From positions 1 to 61,161 of the IMG/VR virus record IMGVR_UViG_3300037721_000087: DNA of 61,161 nucleotides; one strand, 5' to 3'. Under the pieces are notes generated by a model. The model did no database searches, was not told the DNA's origin, and saw only the letters and a program-made list of their open reading frames with translations. Each line of letters starts with the position of its first letter. The stretch's first letter is position 1. Shown here one piece after another: positions 6,430-47,153 of the stretch. Made by a program: the position numbers and the translations under genes. The stretch is from a virus (lineage: Duplodnaviria > Caudoviricetes).

Positions 6430-6435
6430 CGAACT

Positions 6436-8969: not shown

Positions 8970-9032
8970 CCCGCACGACCCGCCACAGAGGTCGACGCGG
9001 TCCTTCCACGCTCCCTAGGAGGTCTCTGTGGC
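8970..9032 (+). promoter_or_regulatory. Structured 5' leader, copy 2 (major tail)
   Basis: Near-identical to 6436-6499. Confidence 0.75.
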
Positions 9033-26607: not shown

Positions 26608-26790
26608 ATGCGCACGCCCTACGGCGAGTGGCGCGAGGACGGCAACTCCTCGTCCGGGTACTCCTGGTTCAGCACCCGCCACGACGACGAGCACGCCGAA
26701 CTGCTCGCCTACCTGATCAACCCGGACGCTCTCCCCGCGTTCGACGAGGTCGACTCGACCACGATCGTCGACGACGGGACCCCCGACTGA
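26608..26790 (+). CDS. Small hypothetical protein
   Basis: MRTPYGEWRED...; stop overlaps endolysin ATG. Confidence 0.5.
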   Translation: MRTPYGEWREDGNSSSGYSWFSTRHDDEHAELLAYLINPDALPAFDEVDSTTIVDDGTPD

Positions 26791-27683
26791 TGCCCCTCGT
26801 CCGCTCGCAAAACGGCTGGTCCGCCAACGACCGGTCCATGGTCGCCTCCTACCAGATCCCCGGCGGCAAGGTCGCGCTCCGCAAGGGCGACGTCTCGGTC
26901 ATCCTCATCTGGTGCGCCCAGCGCTGGCACGAGACCGTCGAGCCGCTCGTCTGGCCCGGCAACTGGGGCTACGCGGAGCGCCCGGTGCGCGGCTCGGCCA
27001 CCACCTTGTCCAACCACGCGTCCGGCACGGCCATCGACCTGAACGCGCCCAAGCACCCGCTCGGCGTGCGCGGCACCTTCAGCGCCGGTCAGGTCCGGGC
27101 CGTGCGCGCCATCCTCGGGTTCTGCGAGGGCGTCGTGCGCTGGGGCGAGGACTACCGCTCCCGCGCCGACGGCATGCACCTGGAGATCAACGCAGGCGCA
27201 GCCGACGTCCGCCGCGTTGCCGACAAGATCCGCGCGCTGCCCAGCAGTGGCGGCTTCGTCGCAGCCGGCAAGACGCTCGCTCCCCCGCCACCCCCACCCG
27301 CACCGCCCTGGACCGAGGAGCACCGCGTGCACATCCCCCTCCCCGTCGACGCCTACGGCCGGTTCCGCGCCACCGCGATGGTCGAGACCGCATCGGTGGT
27401 CGCCTCGGACGCCTACGCCACCTGCGCCAGCACGTGGGGCAAGACCAAGTTCCTGATCACGGTCCTGCGCCACGACGGCGCCGTGCTCGCCCAGTGGCGC
27501 CCGGTGCTGGACAACAACCGGCAGTGGGGTGACCGGCTCCCGGTCGGCGCGCGCATCATCACCTTCGAGGGCCTGGTCGAGTTCGCTCCCGTCGAGGAAG
27601 AGCGCGACGAGGACGGGAACCTGCACCAGTCCGACCCCGGCACCCAGCCCGCCGCCGCGATCTGGACCCTGCCGCCCAAGTAG
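26790..27683 (+). CDS. Endolysin, M15-family zinc peptidase with C-terminal domain
   Basis: 'SQNGW', 'WGYAERPVRG', 'SNHASGTAIDLN', 'DGMHLEI', Pro linker. Confidence 0.9.
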   Translation: MPLVRSQNGWSANDRSMVASYQIPGGKVALRKGDVSVILIWCAQRWHETVEPLVWPGNWGYAERPVRGSATTLSNHASGTAIDLNAPKHPLGVRGTFSAGQVRAVRAILGFCEGVVRWGEDYRSRADGMHLEINAGAADVRRVADKIRALPSSGGFVAAGKTLAPPPPPPAPPWTEEHRVHIPLPVDAYGRFRATAMVETASVVASDAYATCASTWGKTKFLITVLRHDGAVLAQWRPVLDNNRQWGDRLPVGARIITFEGLVEFAPVEEERDEDGNLHQSDPGTQPAAAIWTLPPK

Positions 27684-27722
27684 AACAGCCCCGGCTCCGA
27701 CCGGGTAAAGAGAGGAACCACC

Positions 27723-27998
27723 ATGACCAGCCCCGTTCCCCACACCAACGGTCTCTCCCCGAAGGCCGCTGCGGCCGGCGCGGTCGGCCTGCTCGTCGGC
27801 ATCGCGATCGCCGTGCTCAACGCCGTCCAGGACGCGAACTTGCTCGGCGACCTGGCCATGCCCCTGCAAGTCATCCTCCTGGCCGCGATCCCGCCCGTGC
27901 TCACGTTCCTGGGCGCCTACCAGGCCTCGCCCGGCAACGTCGTCAGCGGCAGCACTGCGCGGCACGAGGCGCCCCCGGTGAACGAGGGAGGGTTCTGA
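27723..27998 (+). CDS. Holin
   Basis: Two TM segments, directly after endolysin. Confidence 0.75.
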   Translation: MTSPVPHTNGLSPKAAAAGAVGLLVGIAIAVLNAVQDANLLGDLAMPLQVILLAAIPPVLTFLGAYQASPGNVVSGSTARHEAPPVNEGGF

Positions 27999-28000
27999 CC

Positions 28001-28150
28001 ATGTGGTCCGTGGTTGCGTACATCGGCGCGATCCTGTGCTTTCTGCTCGTGGTGTTCAACGCCCCGATCGCGCTCAACCTGACCGCGCTCGGTCTCGCGT
28101 TCATCGCCGTCGGCCTGCTCGTCGGCCACCTCCCGGTCCGCCGGACCTGA
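28001..28150 (+). CDS. Small two-TM membrane protein
   Basis: Hand translation MWSVVAYIGAILCFLLVVFNAPIALNLTALGLAFIAVGLLVGHLPVRRT; GGAGG upstream. Confidence 0.65.
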   Translation: MWSVVAYIGAILCFLLVVFNAPIALNLTALGLAFIAVGLLVGHLPVRRT

Positions 28151-28168
28151 CCGCACTACGCTGACCTC

Positions 28169-28546
28169 GTGGCCCTCGTCGACCAGCTGCGCGCGTGGGT
28201 CGATCTCCCCCGCAACGCAGCGCTCTTGCCCCAGATCCTCGAACTCCTCGAAGGGATGAACCTCAACATGGCCGCTGACCGCGACATGATGGCCCAGCTC
28301 GCTGCTGACCTCGACACGCTCGCCACCCCGATTGGTGACGTGCTCACCAAGTACGAGGCAGCGAACGCGCGCATCGCCGAGCTCGAAGGACAGGCCGCCG
28401 CCGACGAGGTCGCCGACCTCGACGCACTGCAGCCGGTCCGTGCGGCCTACCAGCGCATCGCTGACCGGTTCCAGGCCGAGCCCGAGGTGCCCGACGTGGC
28501 GCCGCTGCCCGAGCCGCCCGCTGACGGCGAGTCGCAGCCCGTCTGA
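28169..28546 (+). CDS. Coiled-coil hypothetical protein
   Basis: Last + strand ORF of the late operon; start uncertain. Confidence 0.6.
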   Translation: MALVDQLRAWVDLPRNAALLPQILELLEGMNLNMAADRDMMAQLAADLDTLATPIGDVLTKYEAANARIAELEGQAAADEVADLDALQPVRAAYQRIADRFQAEPEVPDVAPLPEPPADGESQPV

Positions 28547-28558
28547 TCGATCACCGCT

Positions 28559-28589
28559 CGTGACGCACATGCGTCACGGCTGGTAGTGT
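28559..28589 (+). promoter_or_regulatory. Promoter (GTGACG -35, extended -10 TGgTAGTGT) overlapped by an inverted repeat
   Basis: CGTGACGCA-CA-TGCGTCACG at 28559-28578; TG-G-TAGTGT at 28581-28589. Confidence 0.55.
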
Positions 28590-28595
28590 TCGGCC

Positions 28596-28661
28596 TCGGT
28601 CGAGCGTCCTCTCGTCCGTGAACACGAAACGCCCCCGCTCATCGAGCGGGGGCGTTTTCGT
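28596..28661 (+). ncRNA. Candidate trans-acting antisense small RNA
   Basis: Non-coding; between an extended -10 and an intrinsic terminator; contains CGTCCTCTCGTCCG (28605-28618), complementary to the early-gene RBS motif. Confidence 0.5.
28624..28661. terminator. Bidirectional intrinsic terminator
   Basis: AAACGCCCCCGCTC-ATC-GAGCGGGGGCGTTTT between convergent operons. Confidence 0.9.
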
Positions 28662-28676
28662 CGTTCCCGGGGAAGC

Positions 28677-30230
28677 TCAGCGCTCGTTGAACGCCCAGCG
28701 CAGCGCAGCTCCGGTGCTGTCGACGAGGTCGTCGTGCTGACGAGGGTCCGGGAACCGGACGAGCTGGTCCTCCAGGTCGGCGAACCGGCGCGCGTGTACG
28801 ACCTGACCTCGTTCGTAGTGCGCCAGCGCGCGCTGCGCCCGGCTGCTCTTCGAACCAGACACCCACTCCCACGTAACGCGGTTGCCCGCCCGGCCGAACT
28901 GTTCAGGCAGGGGCATCCCCCGTGGCTCCAGAACCTTCGCCCAGTGCTCGGACCCGCCTGCGTTCTCCTCGACGATCAGGGTGCGCAGGCCCGGGTTCCG
29001 CTCGGCCAGGTCATGGATCCGGCTTCTGATCTGCTCACCGGTCAACCGCGCGTGCACGGCGTGCACCACGATCGCGCGACGACGATCCGCTGAGCGTCCA
29101 ACGACGGTCATGGCGGTGAGGTCGTTCTTCGAGCCGGTCTTGAGCGCGGGGTCGATCGCCAGCACGTACTCCGCCGCGTGGAAGCGCTCGACCGGCTCGT
29201 AGCGGAACAGGTCCGGCGTCCAGTAGGTGCCGCCCCGGCCGCTGTCCGCGCGCGGGTCCATCTCCACGTTCAGCGCGTAGCTGCGCGAGCCGCGCAGGTA
29301 CTCGCCGAAGTGGGTGTCCGTCAACGCCCACCGCTGCGGCCACAGTGACCGCTCCGCGCCGGTTTCGCGATCGACCAGGACACCGGGCCAGACGTGCGGA
29401 GTGAACCCGTTCTCGACCACCCATTCGGTCGGCTCGCCCTTGGCCGTGCGCACCACGTCGTGCAGCACGCTCTGGTACGCGGTCACCGTGCCGGTCAGCT
29501 GCACGATCGTGTCTGCCCCGCCCATCGGGAGCACGCCGGCCAGCACCTTGCGCAGGATCGACTCCTTGAGCGCGGGCGAGTGGTCCTCTTCCACTGGTTC
29601 GGCGTCGTCGATCACGATCAGGCCCGCTCGCTCGGCGGCGGATCGTGCGCCGAGCGCGGCCTCGCCCAGGCCACGGGACATGATCGTGGCGCCGCGCGTC
29701 ATCACGGTCGCCGACGTGTTCGACGTCCCGCGCCCGCGCACCGGCCGGAGCACGTCGTAGTCCTGCAGCAGGAGCTCGTTCTCGTCGAGTTGGCGCCGCA
29801 AGTGGGACAGGTGTAGCTTCGCCTGCTGGTGGTTGTACGAGAACGTGAAGGCGTACGTGCGGTGGCCATGAGCCAAGGCCCACAAGGGCAGGATCATGTG
29901 CAGCCACACGCTCTTGCCCGCCCCGCGTGGAGCCACCCATGCGTTGCGCTGTCCGCCCGGCTTGCGCCACGCCTTCGCTGACGCGGCCAGGTCCAGGTGT
30001 AGCTCGCTGAACGACATGTCCGTGTGATCGGGCAGGAGCAGGTACTCCTTCGGCATGTACACGATCGCGAACCGGAGCGGGGAGTCGCGCGTGACCCGGC
30101 GCCGGTACTCGCTCGAGGCCTGCACGGCGGCCGTGCGCAGGGGCGCGATCTCGCGCAGGAACCAGTCCCGCCAGGGCGAGCCCACCGGCGGGGGTGTGAT
30201 GGTCGTGCGTTCCTGCGCGAGAGCGGTCAT
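28677..30230 (-). CDS. Second terminase large subunit-like ATPase-nuclease
   Basis: Walker A 'APRGAGKS', Walker B 'LIVIDDAE', 'LTGT', 'LWPQRW', RNase H-like 'LAIDPA...DLTA', 'IVEENAGG', 'HDDLVDS'; ATGA overlap supports start at 30230. Confidence 0.88.
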   Translation of the reverse strand: MTALAQERTTITPPPVGSPWRDWFLREIAPLRTAAVQASSEYRRRVTRDSPLRFAIVYMPKEYLLLPDHTDMSFSELHLDLAASAKAWRKPGGQRNAWVAPRGAGKSVWLHMILPLWALAHGHRTYAFTFSYNHQQAKLHLSHLRRQLDENELLLQDYDVLRPVRGRGTSNTSATVMTRGATIMSRGLGEAALGARSAAERAGLIVIDDAEPVEEDHSPALKESILRKVLAGVLPMGGADTIVQLTGTVTAYQSVLHDVVRTAKGEPTEWVVENGFTPHVWPGVLVDRETGAERSLWPQRWALTDTHFGEYLRGSRSYALNVEMDPRADSGRGGTYWTPDLFRYEPVERFHAAEYVLAIDPALKTGSKNDLTAMTVVGRSADRRRAIVVHAVHARLTGEQIRSRIHDLAERNPGLRTLIVEENAGGSEHWAKVLEPRGMPLPEQFGRAGNRVTWEWVSGSKSSRAQRALAHYERGQVVHARRFADLEDQLVRFPDPRQHDDLVDSTGAALRWAFNER

Positions 30231-30346
30231 CGGCTCAGCAACCATCCCACGATCAATAGCACCGGGACCACGAGAAAGACGGTCCAGATCCCGAGCCAGA
30301 GCAAGAACTCGAACGCCCACGCGAGGTCGTACTCGTATGTGTTCAC
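30227..30346 (-). CDS. Small TM protein
   Basis: MNTYEYDLAWAFEFLLWLGIWTVFLVVPVLLIVGWLLSR; overlaps at both ends. Confidence 0.55.
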   Translation of the reverse strand: MNTYEYDLAWAFEFLLWLGIWTVFLVVPVLLIVGWLLSR

Positions 30347-30684
30347 CACGTCCACCGGCCCTCTTCCCAGTGCCGCTCCGGCGCGTACGTGGCTGCTAAC
30401 GCGCGCACGACCGATAGCCAGACCTCGTACGCTGCGCCCTCGTCCACGGCCGAGGTGTCGCCCAGGGCAACGATCTCGCGCTTCATCTGGATGTCAATGA
30501 TCAGCTCACGGAATGTGCGTGTGGGGTCGCTGCTCGCGCGGATGAGGTCGATCTCCCCTCGGACCAGTGTCGGGAGCTGGTCTTCCATCTGGCCCTCGAT
30601 CACGCTCTTGAGCGCCTTTTCGCGCTCGTCCAGGCGTTCGAGCAGGAGCCGTGCGACGGGCTCCTGTGATCCGAATGCACTCAC
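30343..30684 (-). CDS. Hypothetical protein (possibly DUF6221-like)
   Basis: 'IQMKREIV...VVRALAATYA'; GTGA overlaps. Confidence 0.55.
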   Translation of the reverse strand: MSAFGSQEPVARLLLERLDEREKALKSVIEGQMEDQLPTLVRGEIDLIRASSDPTRTFRELIIDIQMKREIVALGDTSAVDEGAAYEVWLSVVRALAATYAPERHWEEGRWTW

Positions 30685-32195
30685 CGGTCCCACCTTCCGT
30701 GCCGGCCCGTGCGCGTGCCGTCGTTCAGCCCGATCATCGCGAGCCGGGGCGAGAATACGAACAGGATCCCGCACCACAGCGGGCCCGCGATCATCCAGCC
30801 CCACAGCGCGAACGAGGCCACGAACAGGACCGCGACCACGAGCGCGGTCACGAGCATGCCCATGCGGCGGCGGACGACGGGGTTGGCGGCCAGTGCGGAG
30901 AGCGCGAGCAGGTACGGGGTCACGGTTGGATCCTTAGTGGTCGAACATGGTCGGGCTCGATGCCGATGATGACGACCGACTGGCGGCCCTTGCGACGTAG
31001 ACGCACGGCGAGCGAGTCCGCGCGTGGTCCCTCGGTGCAGCGGTGGATGAACTCGGCGCGCACCCAGGTGGCGCCGAACAGGCCGCGGTACTCGACAGCG
31101 TCACCGGGCTGGTAGACGGTGGCCACGCGCATGCCCTCACCCACAGTAGGGCCCGTTGAACTGGTCCAGGAGCCACGCGTAGGACTGCGCGGCCGGTGCC
31201 CGCACGCGTCCCATCGTGCACAGGTCGACCACTGCACGGCCGATCTGGGCGTCGGTGAGCATCACCGGGAGCCCGTGCTGGCGCAGCTGCAGGCGCACCT
31301 TCGCGCCGAGATAGGCGTCGCACCCGCTCGCCCCGTACGGCAGCCGCGCGCAGTCCTGCGCCTGCGCCACGCCCACCGGCGCGGCCACGCTCAACGCGGC
31401 AGCGAGCAGGGCCACGGTCAAGGTCCTCTTCATCGTTCGTCCTCTCATCGGATCACCACCAGCTTGTTCGATGGCACAGGCTCATCTCGATAGGGGCCGT
31501 ATTCCCATGCCACTCGCACGTGTTCTTCGTCGACCAGCTCGATTACTTCACCAGCGCTCTGGCTGATACCACTGGTCTGCCGCACTCGCGAGTGCGTGAA
31601 CACGGGCTGGCCGTCGGCGTCGCGCACCAGCGAACCGGGCTCGCTCGTGCACTGGCCCCACTCCAGGACTCGGTACCCGCCCGGGACCGGCGGCCTCACC
31701 GGGCCACTACCCGGGTCGTGTCCCGCACCGCGCGCTTGTTCGCGTACCAGATCGCGGCCACGGCGAAGCCGGGCTCGAACACCGCGTGCGCCTCGCCGTA
31801 CGGGTCGCGCACGACCCAGCACAGGCGCTCGCCCAGGTGCCCCCAGGACTCGCGCTGCACGTGCCAGCGGATCGAGTTCATGGCGTGTCCCTGGTGTCCA
31901 GGGGCTTGAGGGAGCCCGGAGGCAAGCCGTAGAACGCTGCCACTACGTCGGGGTCCATCCGGAGTGGCCCGGAGAACCGTTCGCCCGAGGTGCCGGAGCG
32001 GAACTCGCCCTGGACCTCTACTCGCCCTACATCTTCGAGCTGGTCCAGCACGCCGCGCACGAGCCCGGCCAGGTACGTGAGGTGCACCGCCGCCGGCACG
32101 GTCGCGTCCATCGCGTGCGGCCCGGTCAGCTCGGCCGCCAGGTCCACGGCCTGGTCCGCCGCCTCGGCCAGGTGCTCGCGCAGGGGCGCGTTCAC
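30681..32195 (-). other. Six small coupled hypothetical genes (30681-30923 TM; 30920-~31132; 31137-31433 signal peptide; 31445-31699; 31696-31881; 31878-32195)
   Basis: Chain of ATGA/GTGA overlaps on the minus strand. Confidence 0.6.
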
Positions 32196-32896
32196 TTCTC
32201 GGCCTCGATCCGGTCGAGGACAGCAGCGAGTGCGTCCATGCTCTGATGGAACTCCGGCCTGCTGCTCCGGACCCAGTGAGTCGAGCTGTACTCGCGGTAC
32301 ATGGCATGCACTGCGTCGAGCAGGTCGCCAGCGTCGAGCAGGTCCCCGAACGTGGACGGGCGAATCTTCTCGCCCCCGTCCATGAGCTCGATCCCGCGCC
32401 AGCTCCCGGACGGGTACTCGGCCAAGTGCTTGCCAGCGGCGTCGTACACGTCGACCCCGCCCGCGCCGTCGGTCGACCACGAGGCGGCGGTCGGGTACTC
32501 GCGCTCGCCCGTGCCGCTCACGATGTAGGTCGGCACGAACACGCGCACGCCGGTGGGGCTGGGGGCGGACGGCTTGGGCTGTCCGAAGAACCGCATCTTC
32601 CCGTCGGGGTAGAGCCGGATCCGTTCGCCGCCCACGGCCCCGCCGTGTACGAGATCCTCGAATGGACTCGCGCCCTCCTCGTCCTGCAGCGCATCGAGCA
32701 CCGCCATCAGCGCGGCCACATGCTGCCGCGCGAGCTTCGCGCTGTCGGTCGGCCCGCCCAGCCACTCTTTGCCGCCGATCGCACCGATGAACCGGCTTAC
32801 GACCTCTCGGCTGTGAGCGTCCAGGTTGGGCGCGATCCGCGATGCGTGCGAGTCAGGGCCCAGCGCCTCAAGCTCGTCATCACTCAGTGGGGGCAT
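32192..32896 (-). CDS. Hypothetical protein
   Basis: 234 aa; GAGAGGAC RBS at 32904-32911. Confidence 0.7.
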   Translation of the reverse strand: MPPLSDDELEALGPDSHASRIAPNLDAHSREVVSRFIGAIGGKEWLGGPTDSAKLARQHVAALMAVLDALQDEEGASPFEDLVHGGAVGGERIRLYPDGKMRFFGQPKPSAPSPTGVRVFVPTYIVSGTGEREYPTAASWSTDGAGGVDVYDAAGKHLAEYPSGSWRGIELMDGGEKIRPSTFGDLLDAGDLLDAVHAMYREYSSTHWVRSSRPEFHQSMDALAAVLDRIEAEK

Positions 32897-33380
32897 GGTT
32901 ATCGTCCTCTCTCGGGAGGGCCGCCAGTGCAGCCATCACTTCGGGGTCGGGCTCTACTTCTCGTGGGGACTCGGTGACCGTGCGGGTCGGGGCGTCGAGC
33001 CCGGCCAGCTTCGCCCACCGGTCCTCGATCTTCAGCAGCCGGTCGATGGCCTGCAGCGGGTCCGCCCGCCCGCCTTTGACCTCTTCCATCACGATCTGCA
33101 CGTACTGCTCCAGGCGCCCGGCCTGTGCGGTGCGCAGGGTCTGGCGGTCGAAGATGTCCTGCCAGGGGATCTCCTCCCTGGCCTCGCGCAGGTACTTGAT
33201 GATGGTCGGGTGCGAGACCGAGTGCCCGTGCTGGCGCAGGTGCTGGGAGATCTTCCGGCTCGACATCCCCTCTTCCTCGGCGAGCCGCAGCGCCTCCTGC
33301 GCCCAGTGCGAACGCGTCCACTGGGTCCGATCGGAGGCATGAGGGGACGGCGCAACCCCGGCGCTGTCGCTCTCCGTCAC
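32880..33380 (-). CDS. HTH protein resembling a terminase small subunit (TerS2-like)
   Basis: N-terminal HTH 'GMSSRKISQHL...VSHPTIIKYL' plus 'AIDRLLKIEDRWAKLAGLDAP'. Confidence 0.65.
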   Translation of the reverse strand: MTESDSAGVAPSPHASDRTQWTRSHWAQEALRLAEEEGMSSRKISQHLRQHGHSVSHPTIIKYLREAREEIPWQDIFDRQTLRTAQAGRLEQYVQIVMEEVKGGRADPLQAIDRLLKIEDRWAKLAGLDAPTRTVTESPREVEPDPEVMAALAALPREDDNHAPTE

Positions 33381-35078
33381 CGATCATGCCCCTGTCTTAC
33401 CGTGTGTCGTAGATCCACTTACCAGCTCAGCGCATGAACACGAGCTGTAGTCGTGCCTGATCAGAACGCGTGCGAGTGCGTGTGCGGCTGGTTCGCGAGC
33501 AGGACCGCCCCGAACGAGCCGGCGTACCGGGTACGTCGCCGCCCCCGGTACGCCCACGCTCGCCAGCCGCGCATGAGCGGGCGCAGGCCCTCGACCATCC
33601 ACACCGGAATGGGCTCGTCGTCGTTCACTGCGGCCACCGGGCGGAGAGTTCGGTCAACCGCTCGTTCAGTTCGGAGAGTGTGGCGCCCAGCTCCTGGTCA
33701 GTACTGGCCTCAAGCGATGCCCGCCAGGCCTGCACGACGGCGTCGATCTGCTCGGCACACAGTTGTGCCGCCCGGACCTTGCGCCCGCCCTCGCGCGGTC
33801 CCTCCTCGTTCATGACCCGTCCTGGCGCGGGAACGGCGCGGTGTTCTGCGGAGGCTCGTTGTCACCGACGTCGAACCCGCGCCCGCCCGAGAACTGTGCC
33901 GCTTCTTTCACCAGCGAGCGCCGCTCCTGCTCGGTGCGGTAGGCGATGATCGCCGGGATCCCGAACGCCAGCACACCGGCCAGGCACCCGACCCAGGCGC
34001 CGTACGCACCGCCGAGCGCGAACATGAGCCCGATCGTGCTGACCATGAACGCGACGTAGAGCAGCGGCCGGATGACCTTGCCCTCGTCCATGCGGTTGGC
34101 CATGGGTCAGCCCCCCTCGCGCCGAGCGAGCTCGGCCGCCACCGCACTGGCGTGATCGGGCAAGAAGACCTCGACCAGCGGACCGAATCCGATCATTCCG
34201 CAGGGGTAGCCCGGCTCCTCGTCCTCGCCGATCAGGCGCACTTCGCCCATCCGATCGAGGACGTGTACGCCTGCAGGGATGGTCTCGTCGTCGAACCAGA
34301 CGCGGGGGGTTCTCGTCTCGCTCACTGGCTCGCTCCGTACGTGGAGCCGAACTCGGTCGCGGCCGGCGCGGACACCGGCTCGTCGTCGAGCCCGACCCGG
34401 GCGCGGACCTCGTTCGCCGAGCGGCGCACTGAGCGCAGGTACGCGGCCACGAGCTGGCTCATGCCCTGCTCGGCCGCCTCCTTCTCGACGCGGTCGGCCT
34501 GCTCCAGGATGAACGCGACGAGCAGGTCCGCTGCGTCGACGTTGGTCAGGAACGTGGGCAGGTCGCTGGACCGGCCCCTCTGTGGTGCCATGGTGGTCGT
34601 CCTCTCTGTGTGGGTTGGTTGTCGATCAGCGCCAATCGGTTACCTGCGGCAGGCAGTTCGTGCACCGGCCGCCGATGTGCTGCGTCGTCTTGCTGCAGTA
34701 CCCGCAGTACTCCTGGCTGTGATCCCCTCGCGGCGCGCCAGACCTGCGCGGCTGCGTGCGGGGCGGAGGCGGGCTGGACTTCTTGCTGCTGAACATTCCC
34801 ATGACGGTTGTCCTCTCTCGGTGGGTGTTCGGTTACTGCAGGAGCCAGGTCAGCACGGCGGGCGCGCGCGTGCCGGTGAGTACGAGCACGAGCAGGAGCG
34901 TGAACGGGATCGTGAGCACCAGGTCCTTGGCCTCGTCCAGGATCTTGGACCCGAGTCCGTCCCGGACCTCGTCCATGAACCAGGACCTGATCGTGGGACG
35001 GATCGTGAGCGGCTCGGGCTCGGCGGGCACGGCGGTGAACACCTCTGTGCTGCCGTGCGTCAGGTAGGTCGTGTCCAT
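33377..35078 (-). other. Small hypothetical genes (incl. 33625-33813; 33810-34103 TM; 34107-34325; 34322-34591; 34626-34802 Cys-rich; 34833-35078 TM)
   Basis: Coupled ORFs, several with the GAGAGGAC RBS. Confidence 0.6.
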
Positions 35079-35099
35079 GAGCGTGTCCTCTCGCTTGGT

Positions 35100-35582
35100 C
35101 TATTGCTGGGCCTCGAGCCAGTCCCGCACCGCGCGGAACGTGGCCACCGACGGCCGCTCGCCGTTGTTCAGGTACCGCCACGCGGCCGTGTAGCCGATGC
35201 CCAGCTGCGGCACCAGCGCGTTCGTGGACAGCCCGAGCTCGTCGCGCTTGGTGCAGGCAGCCTTACGCACCTGCTCGATGCTCTCCTTGGTCATGCCCGC
35301 CTCCAGCTCTTGCTGACGGAGGCTGGCCTGCGGGGTGTGACTCGGTGGACGAGCCCCGGCCACGATCACATGCACCGAGTCGCGGCTCAGGCCGGTCTCC
35401 CGCTGCAGATCGATCGGATCTGCACGGAACGTGGAGTACAGGGCGCGCATCATCCCGCGGCGTCGACCACGAGCAGCGGTCACCCGCGAGCGCGCAGCTG
35501 TCAACGCCTCGTCGGCGGCCACCACCTCGGCCTGTGCCTCGCGCAGAGCGCGGCGGTCGTCGTCGGTCAGCATGTCGCTCAC
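35100..35582 (-). CDS. DNA-binding protein with two HTH-like regions (C-terminal XRE-like)
   Basis: 'IDLQRETGLSRDSVHVIV' and 'LGLSTNALVPQLGIGYTAAWRYLNNGERPS'. Confidence 0.65.
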   Translation of the reverse strand: MSDMLTDDDRRALREAQAEVVAADEALTAARSRVTAARGRRRGMMRALYSTFRADPIDLQRETGLSRDSVHVIVAGARPPSHTPQASLRQQELEAGMTKESIEQVRKAACTKRDELGLSTNALVPQLGIGYTAAWRYLNNGERPSVATFRAVRDWLEAQQ

Positions 35583-35829
35583 TGTACGGCACCGGTCAAG
35601 CCTGACACCTGACGGTCCCGCCAGCACGCCAGGAGCGTGCCCGCGACCGAGCACGCGCACCCGAGCGCGAACAGGAGCACGGGCTGACCGGCCGCCAGGA
35701 CGAACAGCACACTCACGACCACCAGCACGGTCGGCGCGACGAGCACGCTCACGAGCAGCACGGGCGCGTCGGCCCGGACATGAACCGGCCCCGCACGGTG
35801 GTCTCCGTGCGGGGCCGGCCAGGACAGGC

Positions 35830-36144
35830 TCACGCCGCTATGACTTCCATGGCACGGGCGAATCGCTCCCCCTTTGGCGTGAGCCGGTAGAACGAGCGGT
35901 ACCGAGCATGGTGCAACGCGGATGACCGCTTACCTTCACGCCGCTCTACGAGTCCGACCTGAACCAGGCTGCCCAGAACGCGGGGCGCGTCGGTGACGCC
36001 AACCTTCGCAATCTCGGAGGTGTGCCGCTCTCCATGTCGGAGCAGCGAGGACACGACCGTCAGCGTGGCGTCCGACGGGAGCCGTGGTCCCCCCGGTCGC
36101 CGGTAGGGCGCCCACAGTTCTCGCATCTGCGCGGGGCCGATCAT
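35830..36144 (-). CDS. Winged-helix DNA-binding protein (PadR/MarR-like)
   Basis: 'VLGSLVQVGLVERR...FYRLTPKGERFA'. Confidence 0.65.
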   Translation of the reverse strand: MIGPAQMRELWAPYRRPGGPRLPSDATLTVVSSLLRHGERHTSEIAKVGVTDAPRVLGSLVQVGLVERREGKRSSALHHARYRSFYRLTPKGERFARAMEVIAA

Positions 36145-37653
36145 CCCACCGGTCCCTGCTCGACGGCCACGACCGGCGGAGGCGGGGGCGCATCGTTCTC
36201 CCTGCTTGCGGCGAACAGGATCAGCGCCAGCAGCAGCGCCGGCAGGAAGATGCGCTTCATCGTTCGCCCTCTCCGTCAGCCAGATCCACGTCAACGACAG
36301 CGTCCTCACTGTCGACGTGCGCACCCGTGTTCATCGGGCAATCGCAGTACGGGCTGCCCACCAGGCAGCTGCACGGCCAGAGAGGGCCTTCGTTTGGGTA
36401 CATGCTCATCGTTCGTCCTCTCTCGGGTAGTCCTGCGATTGCGCGGGCCGGACCGGCCCGCCCGTGTGCTCGATGACTGCGGCGGCCGAGGTGCAGGTCA
36501 CGCCCTCGTGCCCGGCCAGCGCCACGTAGGCGCCGGCCTCGGCCTCGTACGTCCACACCGAGCCGTCGGCCAGCGCGAGCACGTCGGCCAGCTCGTCGGC
36601 CCGGTACTCGGACTCGGGCGTACCCGGGGGGTGGTACTCGGTCATGACGGATCGCCGAGGATGAAATGAGCAGTCTCTCGCTGCTCTGTCGTCCACCCTT
36701 CACCGTTGGCCACTTCGGTGGCCCATCGCTCCATCAAGCGCAGGCGGGCGAGCTCGTCGACCGCCTTGTTCGCCATCTCTGCCAGGGCCAGGTTCCCGTC
36801 CGCCTTGGCCACGCCGGACACCGAGGCGAGCCAGCCCGTGATCTCATCCATCACGCCTCCTCGCCGAGGATCCAACGTGCGGACTTCGCGACATCGTCGC
36901 AGTGGTGCAGCTTCGCCAGCTCGGCCCGCTGCGCAACTGCACGCAGACGGGTGAGCTCGTCTCTTCGCGCGGCAAGGCGCTCCGAAAGGCGAGCCTCTAC
37001 GGCGCGGAGTCGCTGAACCTCGCGCGCGAGCACGCTGCCCTTCACGAGCTTCATCGCACGCCCTACGGCGTCCGCGCTCGGGTACTCGTCGATGTCCATC
37101 ACACCGCTCCCACGAGCGCGGCCACGAGCAGGCTCGCGACGATGAACCCGACGCACAGGCCCGTGAGCAGGCCGTGCGCCAGCTCGTGACGGGTCGAGCG
37201 GTACTTGAGCGTGTCCATCACTTCTTCCCCTTGCACGTGTGCGAGTACGGGCGCCCGGAGGTGTCGTTCGGAACGGGCTCCCCGCACCTACCGCAGGTGG
37301 TCCAGCCCGGGTCGTCATCTGCCTGGTTCATCACGCTGTCCTCTCGTCGTTGTCGATCTGGCGGAACTCGGTCACGGCGTCTCGCCAGTGAGAATCCAGC
37401 TCGCGGTCAGTTGTGCCTGACGAGGGCTCGGTCCATTCGTCGTCGAAAGGGCCAGAGCTACGTGTCGATCCGGCCGAGCGGGACGTCCTTGTGCGACCAT
37501 CTCGGCCCGCTGCTCGATCGCGCGCAGGCGGTTCAGTTCGGCCAGCACGGCGCGCGCGGTAGGCGGCCGGATCGTGCTGGGTCGGTCCAGCGTCACCGCC
37601 TCCGCCAGTGCGAGCTTGCCCAGGTCGAGGTCGTTGGGTCGTGTGTCCATCAC
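36141..37653 (-). other. Small hypothetical genes (36141-36260; 36257-36409; 36406-36645; 36642-36851; 36851-37099; 37099-~37218; 37331-~37650 and others)
   Basis: Coupled short ORFs, several with GAGAGGAC RBS. Confidence 0.55.
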
Positions 37654-38225
37654 GCCGTCCTCTCGTTTTCGATCGCATAGCGGGCTTGACGCAGGAGTGG
37701 ACTCTCGTTCCACTCGACCTTCGCGATGGCCTCGAACTGGAATGCGGTCGGTATCCACGGCAGAACTTGGGCGTGGTGGAGCCCCATGCTGGCTAGCCCT
37801 AACGCGTCCGCCTGGTCGTCGGTGCGGAGCTCCACGTCGGGCCACCGCTTGCTGATGTGCTGGCCGACGCGGAACTTGTCGGCGTTGCCAGACCCCGTCA
37901 CCCACTTCTTCAGTACGGATGGCGTGACCACGCCGACAGGTGCGGGGTGCTGCAGTAGCTCGGAGAACATGAGCCACCACAGACCGGCGAGGTCGCGGGT
38001 TGCCGACCCCTTCGACCCGAACGACGGGGCCTCGATCAGGACCAGGTCCGACTTGACGGCGTACTCGGAGACGAATGCCACCTGCAGGTGCATTCGGTGC
38101 AGCTTCGCTGCTGCGGTCGAGCCGGCGGGCTTGGTGCGCGACACCTCGACCGTGAGGTCGTTGGCGTCGGCGATCAGACAGATCGCGGTCGCAGTGAGCG
38201 ACGGGTCGACCCCGAGGACCCTCAC
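37650..38225 (-). CDS. RuvC-like Holliday junction resolvase
   Basis: 'VLGVDPSLTAT', 'VLIEAPSF', 'PSVLKKWVTGSGNADK', 'DDQADAL'. Confidence 0.9.
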   Translation of the reverse strand: MRVLGVDPSLTATAICLIADANDLTVEVSRTKPAGSTAAAKLHRMHLQVAFVSEYAVKSDLVLIEAPSFGSKGSATRDLAGLWWLMFSELLQHPAPVGVVTPSVLKKWVTGSGNADKFRVGQHISKRWPDVELRTDDQADALGLASMGLHHAQVLPWIPTAFQFEAIAKVEWNESPLLRQARYAIENERTA

Positions 38226-38352
38226 GACCGCTTCCTCTCCCACAGCACGCCCGACCACAGTCCGAGGTCGATCGTGACGCTCGTGATCCGGAGCCCGCTG
38301 CGGTTGATCCGCAGCGGGCCGACGCGCCCGGTCCTGCGCTTGGGCTTGATCC

Positions 38353-38949
38353 TCATCGGCTGTCCTCGTAGCCGCTGAAAGGCAGAGCGATGACCTGTCG
38401 CAGCTCTTCGACAGGAACACCACCGAACAGCGCGTAGACGTCGACCAGGTCCGCAACCAGGCCCAGTCGTGGGTCTCGCAAGTGGGCTTCGGCCACTGCA
38501 CGGCGGTCGATCTCGCGCAGAGCATCGACAACGACCTGACGGTGGTCGAAGGCCAGTTCGACCTCTCGGTTCACCACGTCGGCGACCGGCAGCCAGCGGG
38601 CATCGCTGGCGTCGTCCGCAGCAGCGGGCGCCACCGTCTTCGCGAAGGTCACGGTGTAGGCGAAGGTGACGTACCGGCCCCGGGGGTCTCGGCCTGGAGT
38701 CGCGTAGGTCCCGACCGGAACGAGGTCGTCGACATTGACCCCGCGCACGCCCGTCTCCTCGGTCAGCTCTCGCACGGCCGCTGTAGCGGTGTCCTCACCT
38801 GGGTCGACGTGCCCACCGGGCAGTGCCCATGCGCCCTGGTGCGGGTCTTTGCCCCGCTGGATCAGCAACACGCACTGCTGCCCGTCCTCACGAGTAGCCA
38901 GCAGCACGACGTCGGCGGTTAGACGCACCAGCTCGTCCAGCTTGTTCAT
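38353..38949 (-). CDS. Nudix hydrolase (ADP-ribose pyrophosphatase-like)
   Basis: Nudix box 'GGHVDPGEDTATAAVRELTEETGV'; 'RDPRGR', 'DDA', 'LAFDH'. Confidence 0.92.
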   Translation of the reverse strand: MNKLDELVRLTADVVLLATREDGQQCVLLIQRGKDPHQGAWALPGGHVDPGEDTATAAVRELTEETGVRGVNVDDLVPVGTYATPGRDPRGRYVTFAYTVTFAKTVAPAAADDASDARWLPVADVVNREVELAFDHRQVVVDALREIDRRAVAEAHLRDPRLGLVADLVDVYALFGGVPVEELRQVIALPFSGYEDSR

Positions 38950-39044
38950 GACGGCTTCCGTCCGTTGTTCAGGGACCGCGACGCGCGCTCCATCTTGCGG
39001 ATCATGTCCTCGATCCAGCGCTTGATCATTGTTCGTCCTCTCGT

Positions 39045-39263
39045 TCAGCAGTACGGGCCGGGACAGATCCCGCCCCGCATGGTCCGGGTCTTGCCGTCGG
39101 GACAGTTGTGCTGGCGCGGGGCCGGGTCCACGCCCCGGCTCGCGGCCTGGCGCTTGTGGCCCCGCTCGATGTTCTTGCAGCGCAGGCACGTGCTGCCGCG
39201 CTGGTAGGACCGGCCGCAGGCCCCGCACTTGGGGTCGGGCTTGAACGCGCTGAGCAGGCCCAT
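39045..39263 (-). CDS. Small Cys-rich (Zn-binding) protein
   Basis: CGAC, CLRC and further Cys; GAGAAGAC RBS variant. Confidence 0.55.
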   Translation of the reverse strand: MGLLSAFKPDPKCGACGRSYQRGSTCLRCKNIERGHKRQAASRGVDPAPRQHNCPDGKTRTMRGGICPGPYC

Positions 39264-39599
39264 GGTCGACGTCTTCTCTCAGGGGCAGCGCGGCCCGAGC
39301 CGGTCGGCCGGGTCGGTGTGCGAGCGGTCCGGCCCGTCGTCGGCCGCTCCGCAGTCGTGATCGGGCGCGATGTCGCGCTCGCGCCGCACGCGGGCGACGG
39401 CCTCGCGTGCGGCGACGAGCTGGTCGTCACTCATCCTCGAGCGCCTCGTCGTAGGCATCGATCGCGTCCTTGGCCTCGTCCAGAGAGGTGGCCTCATACC
39501 TGATCCAGTCCAGCAGGAAGCCCTCGTCCGGCTTGCGGCCCATCTCGGCGATGATCCCGTTCAGGTCCATGTCCTCGTCCTCTCTCTCGCTTGTGTCCA

Positions 39600-39628
39600 A
39601 GCTTAGCGCATGCCCGACACAACCGCAA
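39600..39628 (-). promoter_or_regulatory. Internal early promoter
   Basis: Minus strand reads TTGCGG-17 nt-TAAGCT upstream of the GAGAGGAC-led gene starting at 39570. Confidence 0.5.
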
Positions 39629-39631
39629 CAC

Positions 39632-39886
39632 CTAGAGCAGGGACCGCCAGAACCGGAGCGCGACCACGTTGTCCACGTCGGTCGCCGTCCCCGTGCCGGC
39701 GCACGCCCCGCACAGCTCGTCGCGCCAGAACGCCCACCACCGGCGGCGCCCGGCGGGCCCGCCTGTGCACGTCGTACAGCGCTCGACCCGGCGCCCGCGC
39801 TCGTGTCTGCCCACGCGCAGGCCCCGTACCCGCCCGTCCCCCACACCCCACCAACGACGGGCCAGGGTGCCCAGGTTCGTACTCAT
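39632..39886 (-). CDS. DnaJ-type Zn-finger small protein
   Basis: CTTCTGG and CGACAGTG; ATGA overlap. Confidence 0.5.
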   Translation of the reverse strand: MSTNLGTLARRWWGVGDGRVRGLRVGRHERGRRVERCTTCTGGPAGRRRWWAFWRDELCGACAGTGTATDVDNVVALRFWRSLL

Positions 39887-40155
39887 GCCGCAACCTGCTT
39901 ACGCCGAACGCGCCAGCGTGCCCGGTCCAGTGCGGCGTAGGTGACCCCGAGCTCGCGCGCGATCTCGACCCACGTCATGGGTCGGTCCGGGCACCGGGCC
40001 CGCAGCAGCTCCGCCTCCTCGACCAGGTCGTCCTGCGGCCAGGTGCTGCGCGGGTGGTCGACGTGCGTCCCGTGCAGCAGCGCGAGCTGGTAGCAGGTGG
40101 GGCACAGCCCCCGCGCGCGATGCTTGCGTTCGGGGTGGCACAGCGGCGTCCTCAT
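39883..40155 (-). CDS. Zn-finger/HTH protein
   Basis: 'HRARGLCPTCY' and 'TWVEIARELGVTYAAL'. Confidence 0.65.
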   Translation of the reverse strand: MRTPLCHPERKHRARGLCPTCYQLALLHGTHVDHPRSTWPQDDLVEEAELLRARCPDRPMTWVEIARELGVTYAALDRARWRVRRKQVAA

Positions 40156-41888
40156 CGCGTCACCTTCCAGCGCTTGTCGAGCATGTTGGTCGCCATCCGG
40201 ACGTTGATCCGGTCCGAGAGCCCGGCCTTGTCCAGGCCCCTGATCTCGTCCCAGCTCAGGCCCAGGCTCAGTGCCTTCTCCTGCTGTTTGGCCGAGGCCG
40301 GGCCGGTGCGCCAGCCCCGGGCCCGGTCGGCGTATGACTTGCCCTCGGGCTGCAGCAGGGCCCAGGCCTCGGCCCTGCGCCGGGCCTCGTCGAGGGTGAG
40401 CCCGTCGTCCATCCGGACCCCGTCCTTGACCAGGCCCTTCATTCGGATGTGGCCCCAGCGGTAGGTGCCGTCCGGGTTGCGCCACAGCACGGCCATCCGC
40501 TCGCCGGTGGGCAGGAACGGGGTCCCGCGCCGCTCGGTGGCCAGCCACACGAACGGGGACGCGGTGAACAGCAGGTCCAGGTCCTCGTAAGTGGCCGGGC
40601 CCTCGAGCTTGCGCCGACCAAGACCAGCCCCTGGGCTCTCGCTCGCGCCGCACCGGCACGCCTCGTCCACACCGAGCTCGGCGGCGGCCTTGAGCGTGGT
40701 CGGCAGCCCGCACTGCTCGCACGGCAGCAGGTCCAGCGCGGCCGTGTCGTACTCCGCCGAGGGCACCAGGTCGACGAGCGTCACCAGACGCTGGTGGCGT
40801 GACGCGCCGACCACGTCCAGGATCAGGCAGTCGTCCAGCCCGGCGTGGCGGCGAAGACCACGGCCCACGCCCTGCATGTAGACCCCGGGCAAGCGCGTCG
40901 GGCGCGCCCACAGGATGCAGTTCACGCTCGGCTCGTCGAAGCCCTCGACCAGGACGAACACGTTCACGATCACGCGCGTGCTGCCGGCGGCGAGCCGGGC
41001 GTACATCTCGCGCCGCTCCGGCTGCGGGGTGGTGCCCACGACGACCTCGCACGCCACGCCCTGGGCCACGAACGCGGCGCCCAGGTCGAACGCAGACTGC
41101 ACGTCGGGCACGAATGCCATCGTCTTGCGCTCGGCCGCGTGCTCGAGCCAAGCCTCGACGATCCGGTCCGCGTCCTGCGACACCATCTCGCCCAGCTCGC
41201 CGGACTGGTAGTCGCGCCCGGCCGCCGTGGTGGACACCTTCGCCTGCGCGAGGTCGACGTGGTCGGCGACCACGACCCGGCCCACGGGGCGCTTGAGCCA
41301 CGCGTCCGCGCCGGGTTCGCACGGGCCGTCGGGCCCGTTGGTGACCGCCCACGCCAGCTCGACCCGGTGCGCGACCGACTCGAACACGTCGGCCAGCCCG
41401 AACCGGTCGTGGCGCACGAACGTGGCCGTGAGTCCGACCAGCCGGGCGCCGTCGGGCTCGTAGCACCGGGCCCACCGGATCGTCTCCAGGTAGCCCTTCG
41501 AGCCGACCCGGTGGCATTCGTCCACGATCACCAGCGTGGGCAGCTCCATGTCCTTGCGCCGGGACTCGCGCCCCAGCGTCTGGATCATCGCCGTCACGAT
41601 CGGGCGCCGGTGCTCGTTGCGCCCGGCCTGCACCCGTCCGACCGGCACCTGCGGGGCGAACAGGGCGCAGCGCTTGGTGATGTCGTCGAGCACGTCCTGC
41701 TGGTGACACAGCACCAGCACGCGCCCGCCCCGGGCCACCTCGTCGGTCGCCAGCTTGCTGAGAATATGACCCTTGCCCAGGCCGGTCGGGTGCACGATCG
41801 CCGTCCTTCGGACACCGCGCTCGAACTCGTGCGCGACCGCCGCAACGGCCTCCTCCTGGTGTGAGCGCAGGGCGACCGGGGCGCTCAC
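40152..41888 (-). CDS. SF2 DEAD/DEAH-box helicase
   Basis: 'LRSHQ', 'PTGLGKG', 'IVDECH', 'GLTAT', 'VEGFDEP', 'QGVGRGLR'. Confidence 0.93.
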   Translation of the reverse strand: MSAPVALRSHQEEAVAAVAHEFERGVRRTAIVHPTGLGKGHILSKLATDEVARGGRVLVLCHQQDVLDDITKRCALFAPQVPVGRVQAGRNEHRRPIVTAMIQTLGRESRRKDMELPTLVIVDECHRVGSKGYLETIRWARCYEPDGARLVGLTATFVRHDRFGLADVFESVAHRVELAWAVTNGPDGPCEPGADAWLKRPVGRVVVADHVDLAQAKVSTTAAGRDYQSGELGEMVSQDADRIVEAWLEHAAERKTMAFVPDVQSAFDLGAAFVAQGVACEVVVGTTPQPERREMYARLAAGSTRVIVNVFVLVEGFDEPSVNCILWARPTRLPGVYMQGVGRGLRRHAGLDDCLILDVVGASRHQRLVTLVDLVPSAEYDTAALDLLPCEQCGLPTTLKAAAELGVDEACRCGASESPGAGLGRRKLEGPATYEDLDLLFTASPFVWLATERRGTPFLPTGERMAVLWRNPDGTYRWGHIRMKGLVKDGVRMDDGLTLDEARRRAEAWALLQPEGKSYADRARGWRTGPASAKQQEKALSLGLSWDEIRGLDKAGLSDRINVRMATNMLDKRWKVTR

Positions 41889-43042
41889 CGGGACCTCACG
41901 AACTGCTCCAGCAGTGCGGCGGCCAGCCTTGGAGGGACGGCGTTGCCTGCCTGCTGGTACTGCGACCCCTTGTTGCCCGTCCACGGATAGTCGGCCGAGA
42001 ACGTCTGCAGCACGCCCGCCTCGGCAACCGACACCCGGGCGCGCAGCACGCCGGAGTCGGACACGCGGGGACCGTCGCCGGGCACCTCGAACGCAGGCGC
42101 GGCGAGCGCGGGCGGATCGGGTAGGCGCCGGATGTCCCACTGCGGCACCTTGCCGGTGATGGTCACCGACGGCTCGTCGAGCTGCCGTTCGGTGCGGCCA
42201 CGCTCAGCCGCTGTACGACCCAGGGCCGATGACCCGGCATAGTTCGAACGCTGCACGATCTCGGCGAGCTGGGCGCGGCAGCGCGCGTTACCGAACACTT
42301 CTGCCCCGCCGGTATCCGTACCACCGGAGGTGACCGTCCAGGCAGGCCGGTCGGGCAGGCCCCAGCCCAGAGCCTGGGCCATCGTGACCGGCGGCGGCAG
42401 CGGAGAGCCGTCGTAGTTGCCGTCACGGCGGTAGCGCTGATTGGTCGGCACCGGAGCGGTCGGGACGAACCCCCTGGCCGCGAGCAGCACTGCGCGCTTG
42501 CGCGTCTGTGGCACGCCGAACTCCTCGGCGTGCACGATCCCGGTCCAGGTGAAGTAGCCGAGATCCACCAGGCGTTTGGCCATGTGCTCCCACAGTTCGA
42601 TCACGCCCGGCACCTGCTCCATGGCCACCCAGTCCGGGGCCAGGCGTGCGATCCAGCGCATGGGCTGGGCCGTGAGGCGCGAACGCTCATCGGCCCATGG
42701 CACGTCCGGTGCGTCCCGGCCGATTGCGTGCAGGTCGACCAGGTCCATCACGTGTTGCCGGTCCATCTCGCCGCCCCGCTTGCCGGCCATCGAGAACGAC
42801 TGACACGGCGGGGAGGCGATGAACCCGAACAGGCCGGGGGCGAACATGGCGATCGGGTAGGTCTGTACGTCGCACTCGATCCGGGCGTGCCCGGCGCGAA
42901 GAGCTGTCACGCAGGCATCGCGCGAGTTGTCCAGACCGATGCTGGCACCGGTGAACCCGGCCAGGCGCAGACCCTCTGCCCATCCACCCGGCCCGGCGAA
43001 CAGCTCGAGGACCCTGCGGTTGTCGAGAGCCTGAGCGTTCAC
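41885..43042 (-). CDS. DNA cytosine-5 methyltransferase
   Basis: 'LFAGPGG', 'SPPCQSFS', 'EQV', 'PQTRKR', 'QQAGNAVPP'. Confidence 0.93.
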   Translation of the reverse strand: MNAQALDNRRVLELFAGPGGWAEGLRLAGFTGASIGLDNSRDACVTALRAGHARIECDVQTYPIAMFAPGLFGFIASPPCQSFSMAGKRGGEMDRQHVMDLVDLHAIGRDAPDVPWADERSRLTAQPMRWIARLAPDWVAMEQVPGVIELWEHMAKRLVDLGYFTWTGIVHAEEFGVPQTRKRAVLLAARGFVPTAPVPTNQRYRRDGNYDGSPLPPPVTMAQALGWGLPDRPAWTVTSGGTDTGGAEVFGNARCRAQLAEIVQRSNYAGSSALGRTAAERGRTERQLDEPSVTITGKVPQWDIRRLPDPPALAAPAFEVPGDGPRVSDSGVLRARVSVAEAGVLQTFSADYPWTGNKGSQYQQAGNAVPPRLAAALLEQFVRSR

Positions 43043-46483: not shown

Positions 46484-46505
46484 GTTCGTCCTCTCGGTCG
46501 GGGGA

Positions 46506-46537
46506 AGCAGGGCGGGTGCGCGGGCACCCGCCCTGCT
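46506..46537. terminator. Stem-loop
   Basis: AGCAGGGCGGGTGC-GCGG-GCACCCGCCCTGCT. Confidence 0.6.
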
Positions 46538-46542
46538 CGTGT

Positions 46543-47145: not shown

Positions 47146-47153
47146 GTTGATCT

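Follow-up and report, generated by a model that had tools for sequence, protein, structure and literature searches.

Cluster K mycobacteriophages carry a start-associated sequence (SAS) whose function is given as unknown in the available text of its description, with a ligand that could be RNA or protein (PMC3203893), and SAS is also present in Cluster EF Microbacterium phages (PMC7302621). By the same text, four K1 phages, and only these four, have one SAS copy each that is reversed and does not stand at a gene start (PMC3203893). What might such a copy do? Here we analyze a similar arrangement in IMG/VR virus record IMGVR_UViG_3300037721_000087 (Duplodnaviria; Caudoviricetes), taken whole as the window (61,161 bp, 69% GC, 84% complete by CheckV estimate). 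Many of its early genes share a ribosome-binding motif, GAGAGGAC, and one copy without a start codon lies between the convergent late and early operons, within what appears to be a gene for a short RNA complementary to the motif. Our preferred reading, held at somewhat better than even confidence from sequence and its conservation, is that a small RNA would be transcribed from this gap and would act in trans to repress the early genes by masking their extended Shine-Dalgarno sequence.

Several phages use antisense RNAs, lambda OOP, P22 sar and P4 CI among them. To our knowledge, the phage small RNAs described so far have one or a few linked targets each, and global early-gene shut-off is achieved only through proteins, e.g., T4 RegA and RegB. 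The phage RNA c4 of P1 and P7 pairs around a ribosome-binding site (RBS) and blocks translation, and its complementary bases are thought to lie in loops (PMC12197685). In T4, the endoribonuclease RegB cleaves the Shine-Dalgarno sequence GGAG, and the translational repressor RegA acts on about 30 mRNAs (PMC3014915). High-GC Gram-positive bacteria have the 6C RNA (Rfam RF01066), a short structured RNA which, according to the available part of its description, binds many mRNAs through C-rich loops with no chaperone (PMC6486639). A full-text literature search found no paper on a small RNA of phage origin with complementarity to an RBS motif that early genes share.

A Motif Before Early Gene Starts

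GAGAGGAC occurs 20 times in the window against 3.92 ± 1.87 in 100 shuffled sequences, none of which reached 20. Seventeen copies lie 3-10 nt upstream of a start codon (14 ATG, 3 GTG) that opens an open reading frame (ORF) of 27-234 aa, which bears out the original prediction that at least 17 early genes share the motif. These copies are all found beyond 31 kb and before non-structural genes, on both strands and with none (0/17) in the structural arm, and the orientation of the motif tracks the direction of transcription on either strand. The products belong almost without exception to no known family, nine of the ten motif-bearing genes scanned having no Pfam match.

Like SAS, as far as the available text of the two reports describes it, the motif is asymmetric and well conserved, contains a Shine-Dalgarno core, and sits a few nucleotides before the starts (mostly ATG) of non-structural genes, often after gaps. 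Its sequence, (C)GAGAGGAC, differs from the 13-bp consensus sequences given there for the K and EF phages (PMC3203893; PMC7302621). We regard it as an SAS analogue and not a member, on a comparison of the motif only, the 17-bp inverted repeats (extended start-associated sequence, ESAS) lying outside that comparison. A further difference from SAS as described in print is that a candidate complementary RNA is attached to the motif here. The same octamer, GAGAGGAC, has been reported at -4 to -11 of six genes in Gordonia phage CaiB (Cluster DR), possibly with a regulatory role (PMC9302106). CaiB differs in that exact copies show no enrichment (4 in 20000-61620 vs. 2.7 expected) and the motif lies within a 40-nt repeat.

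Three of the 20 copies lack a start codon, namely 28606-28613 (-), 54139 (+) and 55146-55153 (-), the latter two inside the primase gene. Chance would give 3.9, so that the window alone is compatible with coincidence, and the flanks of the gap copy resemble the family only mildly (background P = 0.045). On the minus strand the 15 nt past the gap copy (28613) contain no ATG, GTG or TTG, and the copy is indeed, as first proposed, no ordinary RBS. Coincidence is ruled out because a start-less copy recurs at the same position in three distant relatives, as set out below.

A Candidate Small RNA Gene in the Convergent Gap

The last late-strand gene ends at 28546 (+) and the last gene of the convergent operon at 28677 (-), leaving a gap of 130 nt (28547-28676) that houses the module. 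The observation behind the original prediction is real and all its sequence statements hold: the inverted repeat, the GTGACG hexamer, the extended -10 and the terminator are each found in the sequence where it placed them. The perfect 9-nt inverted repeat CGTGACGCA/TGCGTCACG (28559-28567 / 28570-28578, 100% complementary) lies over the -35-like GTGACG (28560-28565, + strand), which an 18-nt spacer separates from the -10 element. This promoter-like extended -10, TGGTAGTGT (28581-28589, +), contains the hexamer TAGTGT at 28584-28589. The inverted repeat (28559-28578) occurs once in the window, is not conserved in relatives, and may be an operator or an additional hairpin.

The predicted small RNA would extend from 28596 to 28662 (+), with its 5' end placed at the seventh nucleotide after the -10 and its 3' end in the T-tract, so that some 67 nt separate start and T-run, as would suit a short non-coding transcript closed by a terminator. 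Near its 5' end is a hairpin (28597-28618, +) with stems 28597-28599/28616-28618 and 28601-28604/28611-28614 and the loop CGUCCU (28605-28610). Within this hairpin lies the seed GTCCTCTCG (28606-28614, +), the complement of CGAGAGGAC, which is identical in four phages. The RNA ends in a bidirectional intrinsic terminator (28624-28666) whose perfect 14-bp stem (28627-28640/28644-28657) closes a 3-nt loop. TTTTCGTCGTT comes next; the stem stands between an A-rich run and a T-run, and the fold z-score is -7.05. With GAAAC upstream and GTTTTCG downstream, it has the makeup of a bidirectional Rho-independent terminator between convergent operons; a simple terminator scanner did not list it. Neither strand holds an ORF or start codon shared among the four modules. 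A covariance-model scan of 28000-29200 against Rfam (cmscan, E <= 10) returned 13 weak matches, all far under the gathering score; 6C (RF01066) was not among them, and membership in that family is rejected.

Actinobacterial promoters depend mainly on a TANNNT -10 element. This word is strongly depleted in the window (55 copies vs. 199 expected), and TGNTANNNT occurs five times on the two strands against 10.95 expected. Four of these five copies fall in non-coding gaps. One is the extended -10 of the module, and the remaining three precede the operon ending at 47630 (in a divergent gap), the leaderless ATG at 52374 and gene 56464. The extended -10 of the original prediction gains real weight because -10-like words are avoided genome-wide and the other gap copies of TGNTANNNT stand at sites in need of a promoter. 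TANNNT is equally rare in three related phage genomes introduced below (G002, G006 and G007; 43-82 copies each), and 30-52% of its copies fall within the ~11% of DNA that is non-coding.

Conservation in Distant Relatives

The phage collection gave no match to 27500-30500 by megablast or blastn, and to the module blastn gave terminator-like matches or none. Neither tblastn with the 125-aa product of the last late gene nor a search for an exact 22-nt pattern from the gap gave a match, scanning viral and metagenome contigs with the second terminase as a single protein turned up no relative, and tblastx yielded noise only. The window has no close cultured phage, portal identity being below 50% and DNA searches negative; the window and the three relatives described next are all metagenomic contigs of uncultured phages. 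Lysin-anchored relatives (L003/L012 and L013) have a terminator in the gap and no module. Relatives with the motif family came from portal-anchored loci in IMG/VR, which led to five long contigs, and from a profile of two second-terminase proteins (45% identical), which led to G006 and G007, likewise IMG/VR phages. Among the portal-anchored contigs, GAGAGGAC occurs 26 times in G002 (69.9 kb; portal identity 67%), with 22 copies start-associated, and 0-3 times in each of the other four; G006 (50.2 kb) has 15 and G007 (52.8 kb) 13. The start-associated, non-structural pattern of the motif also holds in G002, G006 and G007, and each of the three has one start-less copy, past the last late gene and immediately upstream of a bidirectional terminator.

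When the four modules are aligned on the seed, GTCCTCTCG is invariant in all of them. A TAnnnT hexamer lies upstream in each (TAGTGT at 16 nt in the window; TAGGCT at 15, TAGGCT at 19 and TACGCT at 17 nt in the relatives), and a GC-rich terminator follows the seed by 10-16 nt (4/4). At the intergenic density of each genome the chance of a TANNNT in that 9-nt interval is 0.012-0.023. The surroundings have diverged: the holin-like/membrane protein retains 39-48% and the second terminase 42-47% amino-acid identity, the DNA flanks are 64-76% identical or unalignable, and G002 and G007 have extra small genes between the module and the terminase-like gene. Left and right neighbors thus differ among the four phages, and the module keeps its place while its neighbors change. 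It is lacking in all six relatives examined that are without the motif family (G001, G003, G004, G005, G008 and G010), which use ordinary, heterogeneous Shine-Dalgarno sequences. With -10, seed, hairpin and terminator kept in 4/4 carriers and the module absent from 6/6 genomes without the family, comparative sequence evidence supports the core idea of an antisense small RNA. No start codon at ribosome-binding distance is common to the four start-less copies. A hidden minus-strand ORF was considered and rejected, since there is no shared start and the TTG ORF of G002 is antisense to a membrane-protein gene, with an antisense-like codon GC.

Could the gap copy be a relic RBS, or a chance copy beside an ordinary tandem terminator, without any sequence-specific function? 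The chance-level number of start-less copies in the window and the mild flank score (P = 0.045) would agree with this, as would findings outside the four phages. A seed-plus-hairpin pattern had seven matches in viral contigs, three of them the known relatives, three ordinary RBSs (L134, L135 and L137) and one, L136, an unrelated contig in which a start-less copy also precedes a hairpin. Among 105 pattern matches in bacterial genome contigs, 79 sites with at least 60 nt upstream were examined (within 80 loci returned), and 38 of these likewise lack a start codon. None of the 79, on the other hand, has the anatomy of the module, and the TAnnnT hexamer is present at two, both with a start codon. 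A relic would have decayed at the divergence seen here, whereas the 9-mer is invariant at one position in four phages with strongly diverged neighbors and differing flanking genes, and the low identity of the DNA flanks disfavors a recent exchange of the segment. Absence of function is accordingly very improbable. The L136 site itself (7950-8060 of an 8-kb viral contig, 63% GC, with no protein match to the window) has its start-less GTCCTCTCG after a stop codon and before a GC-rich hairpin, and has no TAnnnT upstream.

Predicted Structure of the RNA

The RNAs were folded as single sequences from the seventh nucleotide after the -10 hexamer. All four are 65-68 nt long and form two hairpins, a 5' one that begins 1-2 nt from the 5' end as predicted, and then that of the terminator. 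GUCC lies in the loop of the 5' hairpin, with an unpaired probability of 0.95-1.00 in every case. The lower stem is built from differing bases with pairing kept, and the architecture is the same in 4/4; at 3' positions +10, +11 and +12 the pairs in the four phages are GC/AU/GU/CG, GC/AU/CG/GC and CG/-/UA/GC. Through G-U pairs the 5' hairpin gains stability on the late strand relative to the opposite strand in three of the four phages; in the window the two strands are equal. When the seed was held fixed and its flanks were shuffled, the 5' domains gave P = 0.10, 0.06, 0.03 and 0.12, or 0.006 when combined by Fisher's method.

These features bear on a quite different explanation, in which a phage protein binds CGAGAGGAC, either on DNA in the manner of a stoperator or on RNA as a regulator of translation, and the gap copy is one more such site. 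An extra operator would look just like a start-less copy, the orientation of the motif tracks transcription on both strands, and the authors of the SAS report, in the text available, leave open whether the ligand is protein or RNA (PMC3203893). A binding site would leave unexplained the conserved -10 at a set distance, the hairpin kept with different pairs and the strand bias of its G-U pairs. No candidate regulator was found, the scanned motif-bearing genes being nearly all without a Pfam family. Moreover, the gap copy stands beyond the terminator on the strand of the early operon and is therefore outside terminated transcripts. Set beside the stoperators of Cluster A, asymmetric DNA sites to which the phage repressor binds, the motif has an orientation that follows transcription, and in the window no integrase family was matched and no repressor identified; a role in RNA is favored over a DNA site because the spacing to start codons is fixed. 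We regard a protein-binding site as distinctly unlikely.

Predicted Pairing With Early Gene Leaders

Under the preferred reading of a trans-acting RNA, the seed should be accessible and should match the leaders of the motif-bearing genes. The seed is invariant in 4/4 modules and complementary to 12-23 leaders per genome. Contiguous Watson-Crick matches between the RNA and start-associated leaders cover 8-14 nt in the window; in the relatives they cover 8-16 nt. The count for the window used a looser filter that admits 18 sites, one spurious 4-codon ORF among them. The best predicted target is the leader of gene 43816-44064 (82 aa, no family), where 44070-44083 (-) is perfectly complementary to 14 nt of the RNA including the motif. 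The stretch in question, CGTCCTCTCGTCCG (28605-28618, +), reads CGGACGAGAGGACG on the minus strand, and the sole identical 14-mer elsewhere is the one at 44070-44083. A 12-nt match is found at 50175-50186 (+), before gene 50193-50336. Both matches had been part of the original prediction and both were verified.

The other target motifs on the minus strand lie at 31439-31446 (gene 31137-31433), 32904-32911 (gene 32192-32896), 34599-34606 (gene 34322-34591), 34810-34817 (ORF 34626-34802), 35085-35092 (gene 34833-35078), 36415-36422 (ORF 36257-36409), 37338-37345 (ORF 37218-37334), 37657-37664 (ORF 37372-37653), 39035-39042 (ORF 38946-39029, 27 aa), 39577-39584 (gene 39427-39570), 45853-45860 (gene 45712-45846), 46488-46495 (gene 46211-46483, DUF7701) and 60421-60428 (gene 59905-60411). 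On the plus strand they lie at 51477-51484 (gene 51491-52045) and 56446-56453 (gene 56464-57159). The predicted targets are thus 2.8-32 kb from the RNA gene on both strands and none overlaps it, so that the RNA does not qualify as a cis-encoded antisense RNA.

Points Weighing Against the Proposed RNA

Besides the chance-level count of start-less copies and the mild flank score given above, a number of results weigh against the proposed RNA. The first concern its promoter. A strict sigma-70 scan finds none in the gap, the -35 region is weak and unconserved in the relatives, and the extended TG is confined to the window. These results suit an arrangement with the same anti-motif function and no separate gene, in which hairpin and seed are the 3' end of the late mRNA, possibly trimmed to a stable fragment, and TAnnnT is no promoter. 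Small RNAs derived from 3' untranslated regions are a known class, and the module always stands immediately behind the last late gene's stop codon, with that operon's terminator in common. Such an origin would not call for a TAnnnT kept 15-19 nt upstream in 4/4 modules, when the hexamer is rare in these genomes and present at only 2/79 bacterial sites, nor for a hairpin that in all four begins 1-2 nt from the start predicted by the hexamer. An origin solely in the late mRNA is in our judgment unlikely. The original prediction was right that the segment also forms the late mRNA's 3' end, and this mRNA stays an alternative source of the same RNA.

Other points concern the fold. The CUCG half of the seed lies paired in the 3' arm of the predicted hairpin, and taken singly the 5' hairpins only marginally beat their shuffles (P = 0.03-0.12). 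MAFFT with RNAalifold did not recover the fold and paired the seed with a terminator arm, an alignment artefact, because the terminators do not align. With n = 4 sequences, formal covariation statistics are out of reach.

Further points concern the pairing. The original prediction had proposed a check of seed and RBS co-variation in related phages; the 9-mer and the motif family occur together in 4/4 genomes, and co-variation past the shared 9-mer is weak. In a cross-matrix of RNAs and targets, the own RNA is best for its own targets in two of the four genomes, tied in one and second in one, with differences below 1 nt. The base 5' of the seed matches the family majority in three of the four genomes, being C in the window (+1 majority G, 11/17) and U in G002 (majority A, 17/22); in G006 it is U though the family majority is G. 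A ranking of all start regions by duplex energy was expected to place the motif genes on top and does not single them out, 106 of 108 start regions scoring <= -15 kcal/mol with RNAduplex; the ranking fails to discriminate because the genome is GC-rich. A single RNA would also have 12-23 mRNAs to titrate.

The comparative evidence has limits of its own. The four carriers probably form one clade, and with one probable clade and only four genomes the presence and absence of the module amount to one or two evolutionary events. In the available text of the Cluster K paper a start-less reversed SAS is reported only in the four K1 phages (PMC3203893). The convergent gap between lysin B and gene 46 of CaiB holds no start-less complement. 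Finally, the only sequencing run listed for the record is a DNA run, which may be that of the source sample.

Proposed Mechanism and Relation to Known Regulators

If the preferred reading of a separate trans-acting RNA holds, host RNA polymerase would initiate near 28596, ~7 nt past the extended -10, and run to the terminator, releasing the ~67-nt RNA. Its loop (C)GUCCU and the CUCG of the 3' arm would together present GUCCUCUCG, the exact complement of CGAGAGGAC, which would serve as the extended Shine-Dalgarno sequence 3-10 nt before the starts of 17 non-structural genes up to 30 kb away. Four loop bases would first pair with GGAC of a target leader, after which the short stem would open and a duplex of 9-14 bp would form over the ribosome-binding site. 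The 30S subunit would thereby be shut out, translation of the whole motif-bearing class would drop, and the bound mRNAs would probably decay faster. Late transcription would supply more of the RNA because the same sequence ends the late mRNA, and the RNA would then work as an early-gene shut-off or timer. In such a design the early genes would carry an extended RBS motif private to the phage, and one short RNA made from and alongside the late operon would switch the class off. The original prediction also raised RNA-based immunity. This idea is unsupported, the window having given no match to an integrase family, and such immunity in a temperate phage was rejected.

How would such an RNA relate to known regulators? 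With 6C, the closest in mechanism, it would share, as far as the available part of its description goes, a short structured form, loop-based pairing with many mRNAs and a host of similar GC content. The 6C RNA is host-encoded with several loops and heterogeneous targets, whereas the module RNA would be phage-encoded, with one loop directed at one co-conserved motif. Unlike c4, OOP and sar, which act on a single gene or a few linked sites, it would reach in trans 12-23 genes scattered over both strands. The closest functional likeness is to T4 RegA and RegB, which, according to what is available of their description, are phage products that read a motif in the initiation regions of many early mRNAs and shut them off. 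The candidate would be their RNA counterpart, the difference being that RegA and RegB are proteins, while the effector here would be an RNA and the motif phage-specific.

By extension, a phage-encoded anti-Shine-Dalgarno small RNA could dock at the SAS of actinobacteriophages, and the reversed K1 copy could be the same device; we advance this tentatively, as a possibility that we rate below even. In Anaya (JF704106; L037 12871-12883) a reversed start-less SAS is seen at 59870-59882 (-), in the 385-nt gap between gp96 and gp97 and ~150 nt past a terminator, the same kind of oddity as the gap copy at 28606-28613. If the proposal is true, an RNA that co-evolves with a private RBS motif on a dozen or more genes of its own phage would be a new regulatory design, and the purpose of SAS, a question unsolved since 2011, would have a concrete answer in actinobacteriophages, a group with thousands of sequenced, cultured members. 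The design, a 9-nt code and a 65-nt RNA, is also compact and could find use as an orthogonal switch of translation in Gram-positive hosts of high GC content.

Neighboring Genes and Other Features of the Window

Gene calls in the window are crude and were made from codon bias. They place the structural and lysis arm at 50-28546 on the plus strand, with terminase small and large subunits, portal, protease and capsid at its left end and a peptidase-type lysin at 26790-27683. To the right of 28677 a minus-strand arm (28677-47630) is followed by a plus-strand arm (47774-59837), which together encode a helicase, a cytosine methylase and a primase/helicase, and two further minus-strand genes stand at the right end. 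No integrase family was matched within this 84% complete record.

The module is preceded by the last late-strand gene (28169-28546, +; 125 aa, no family), which is not at this position in the three relatives. There, a small holin-like membrane-protein gene homologous to 28001-28150 precedes the module. Homologues of the 125-aa late gene are found elsewhere in L011 and L021, and before the lysin in L011, L021 and L022. On the other side is a second terminase-large-subunit-like gene (28677-30230, -), the last of the convergent operon and a neighbor of the RNA, not part of it. It matches phrog_38 and has a Terminase_6C domain, and it is there even though the window has a canonical pair of small and large terminase genes at 50-2171. 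Terminases from Streptomyces phages and from two satellites, MiniFlayer and Mulchroom, share 30-35% identity with its protein. Homologues of this second terminase lie near the RNA module in G002, G006 and G007.

Some promoter-like words lie outside the module. In 52358-52537, TGCTACGAT is found 7 nt upstream of the ATG that opens a 54-codon ribbon-helix-helix-like ORF missed by the gene caller; the ORF at 52374 looks like a leaderless regulator gene just past a terminator at ~52290-52320. The hexamer TAAGCT is common to the minus-strand leaders of two motif-bearing genes (44094-44099 in 44085-44153 and 39600-39605 in 39590-39640), the copy at 44094-44099 being downstream of a terminator-like hairpin. 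These are probably early promoters of a second type.

Two further regions contain repeated sequence. The gap 55785-56063, after the primase/helicase gene, holds many GTTCCCG and GGGAACAC words in both orientations and looks like an iteron-type replication origin. Two near-identical leaders of ~45 nt, both ending in CTAGGAGG, precede the major capsid gene at 6495 (6430-6494) and the gene at 9028 (8960-9027), and look like a shared late-gene leader or processing element.

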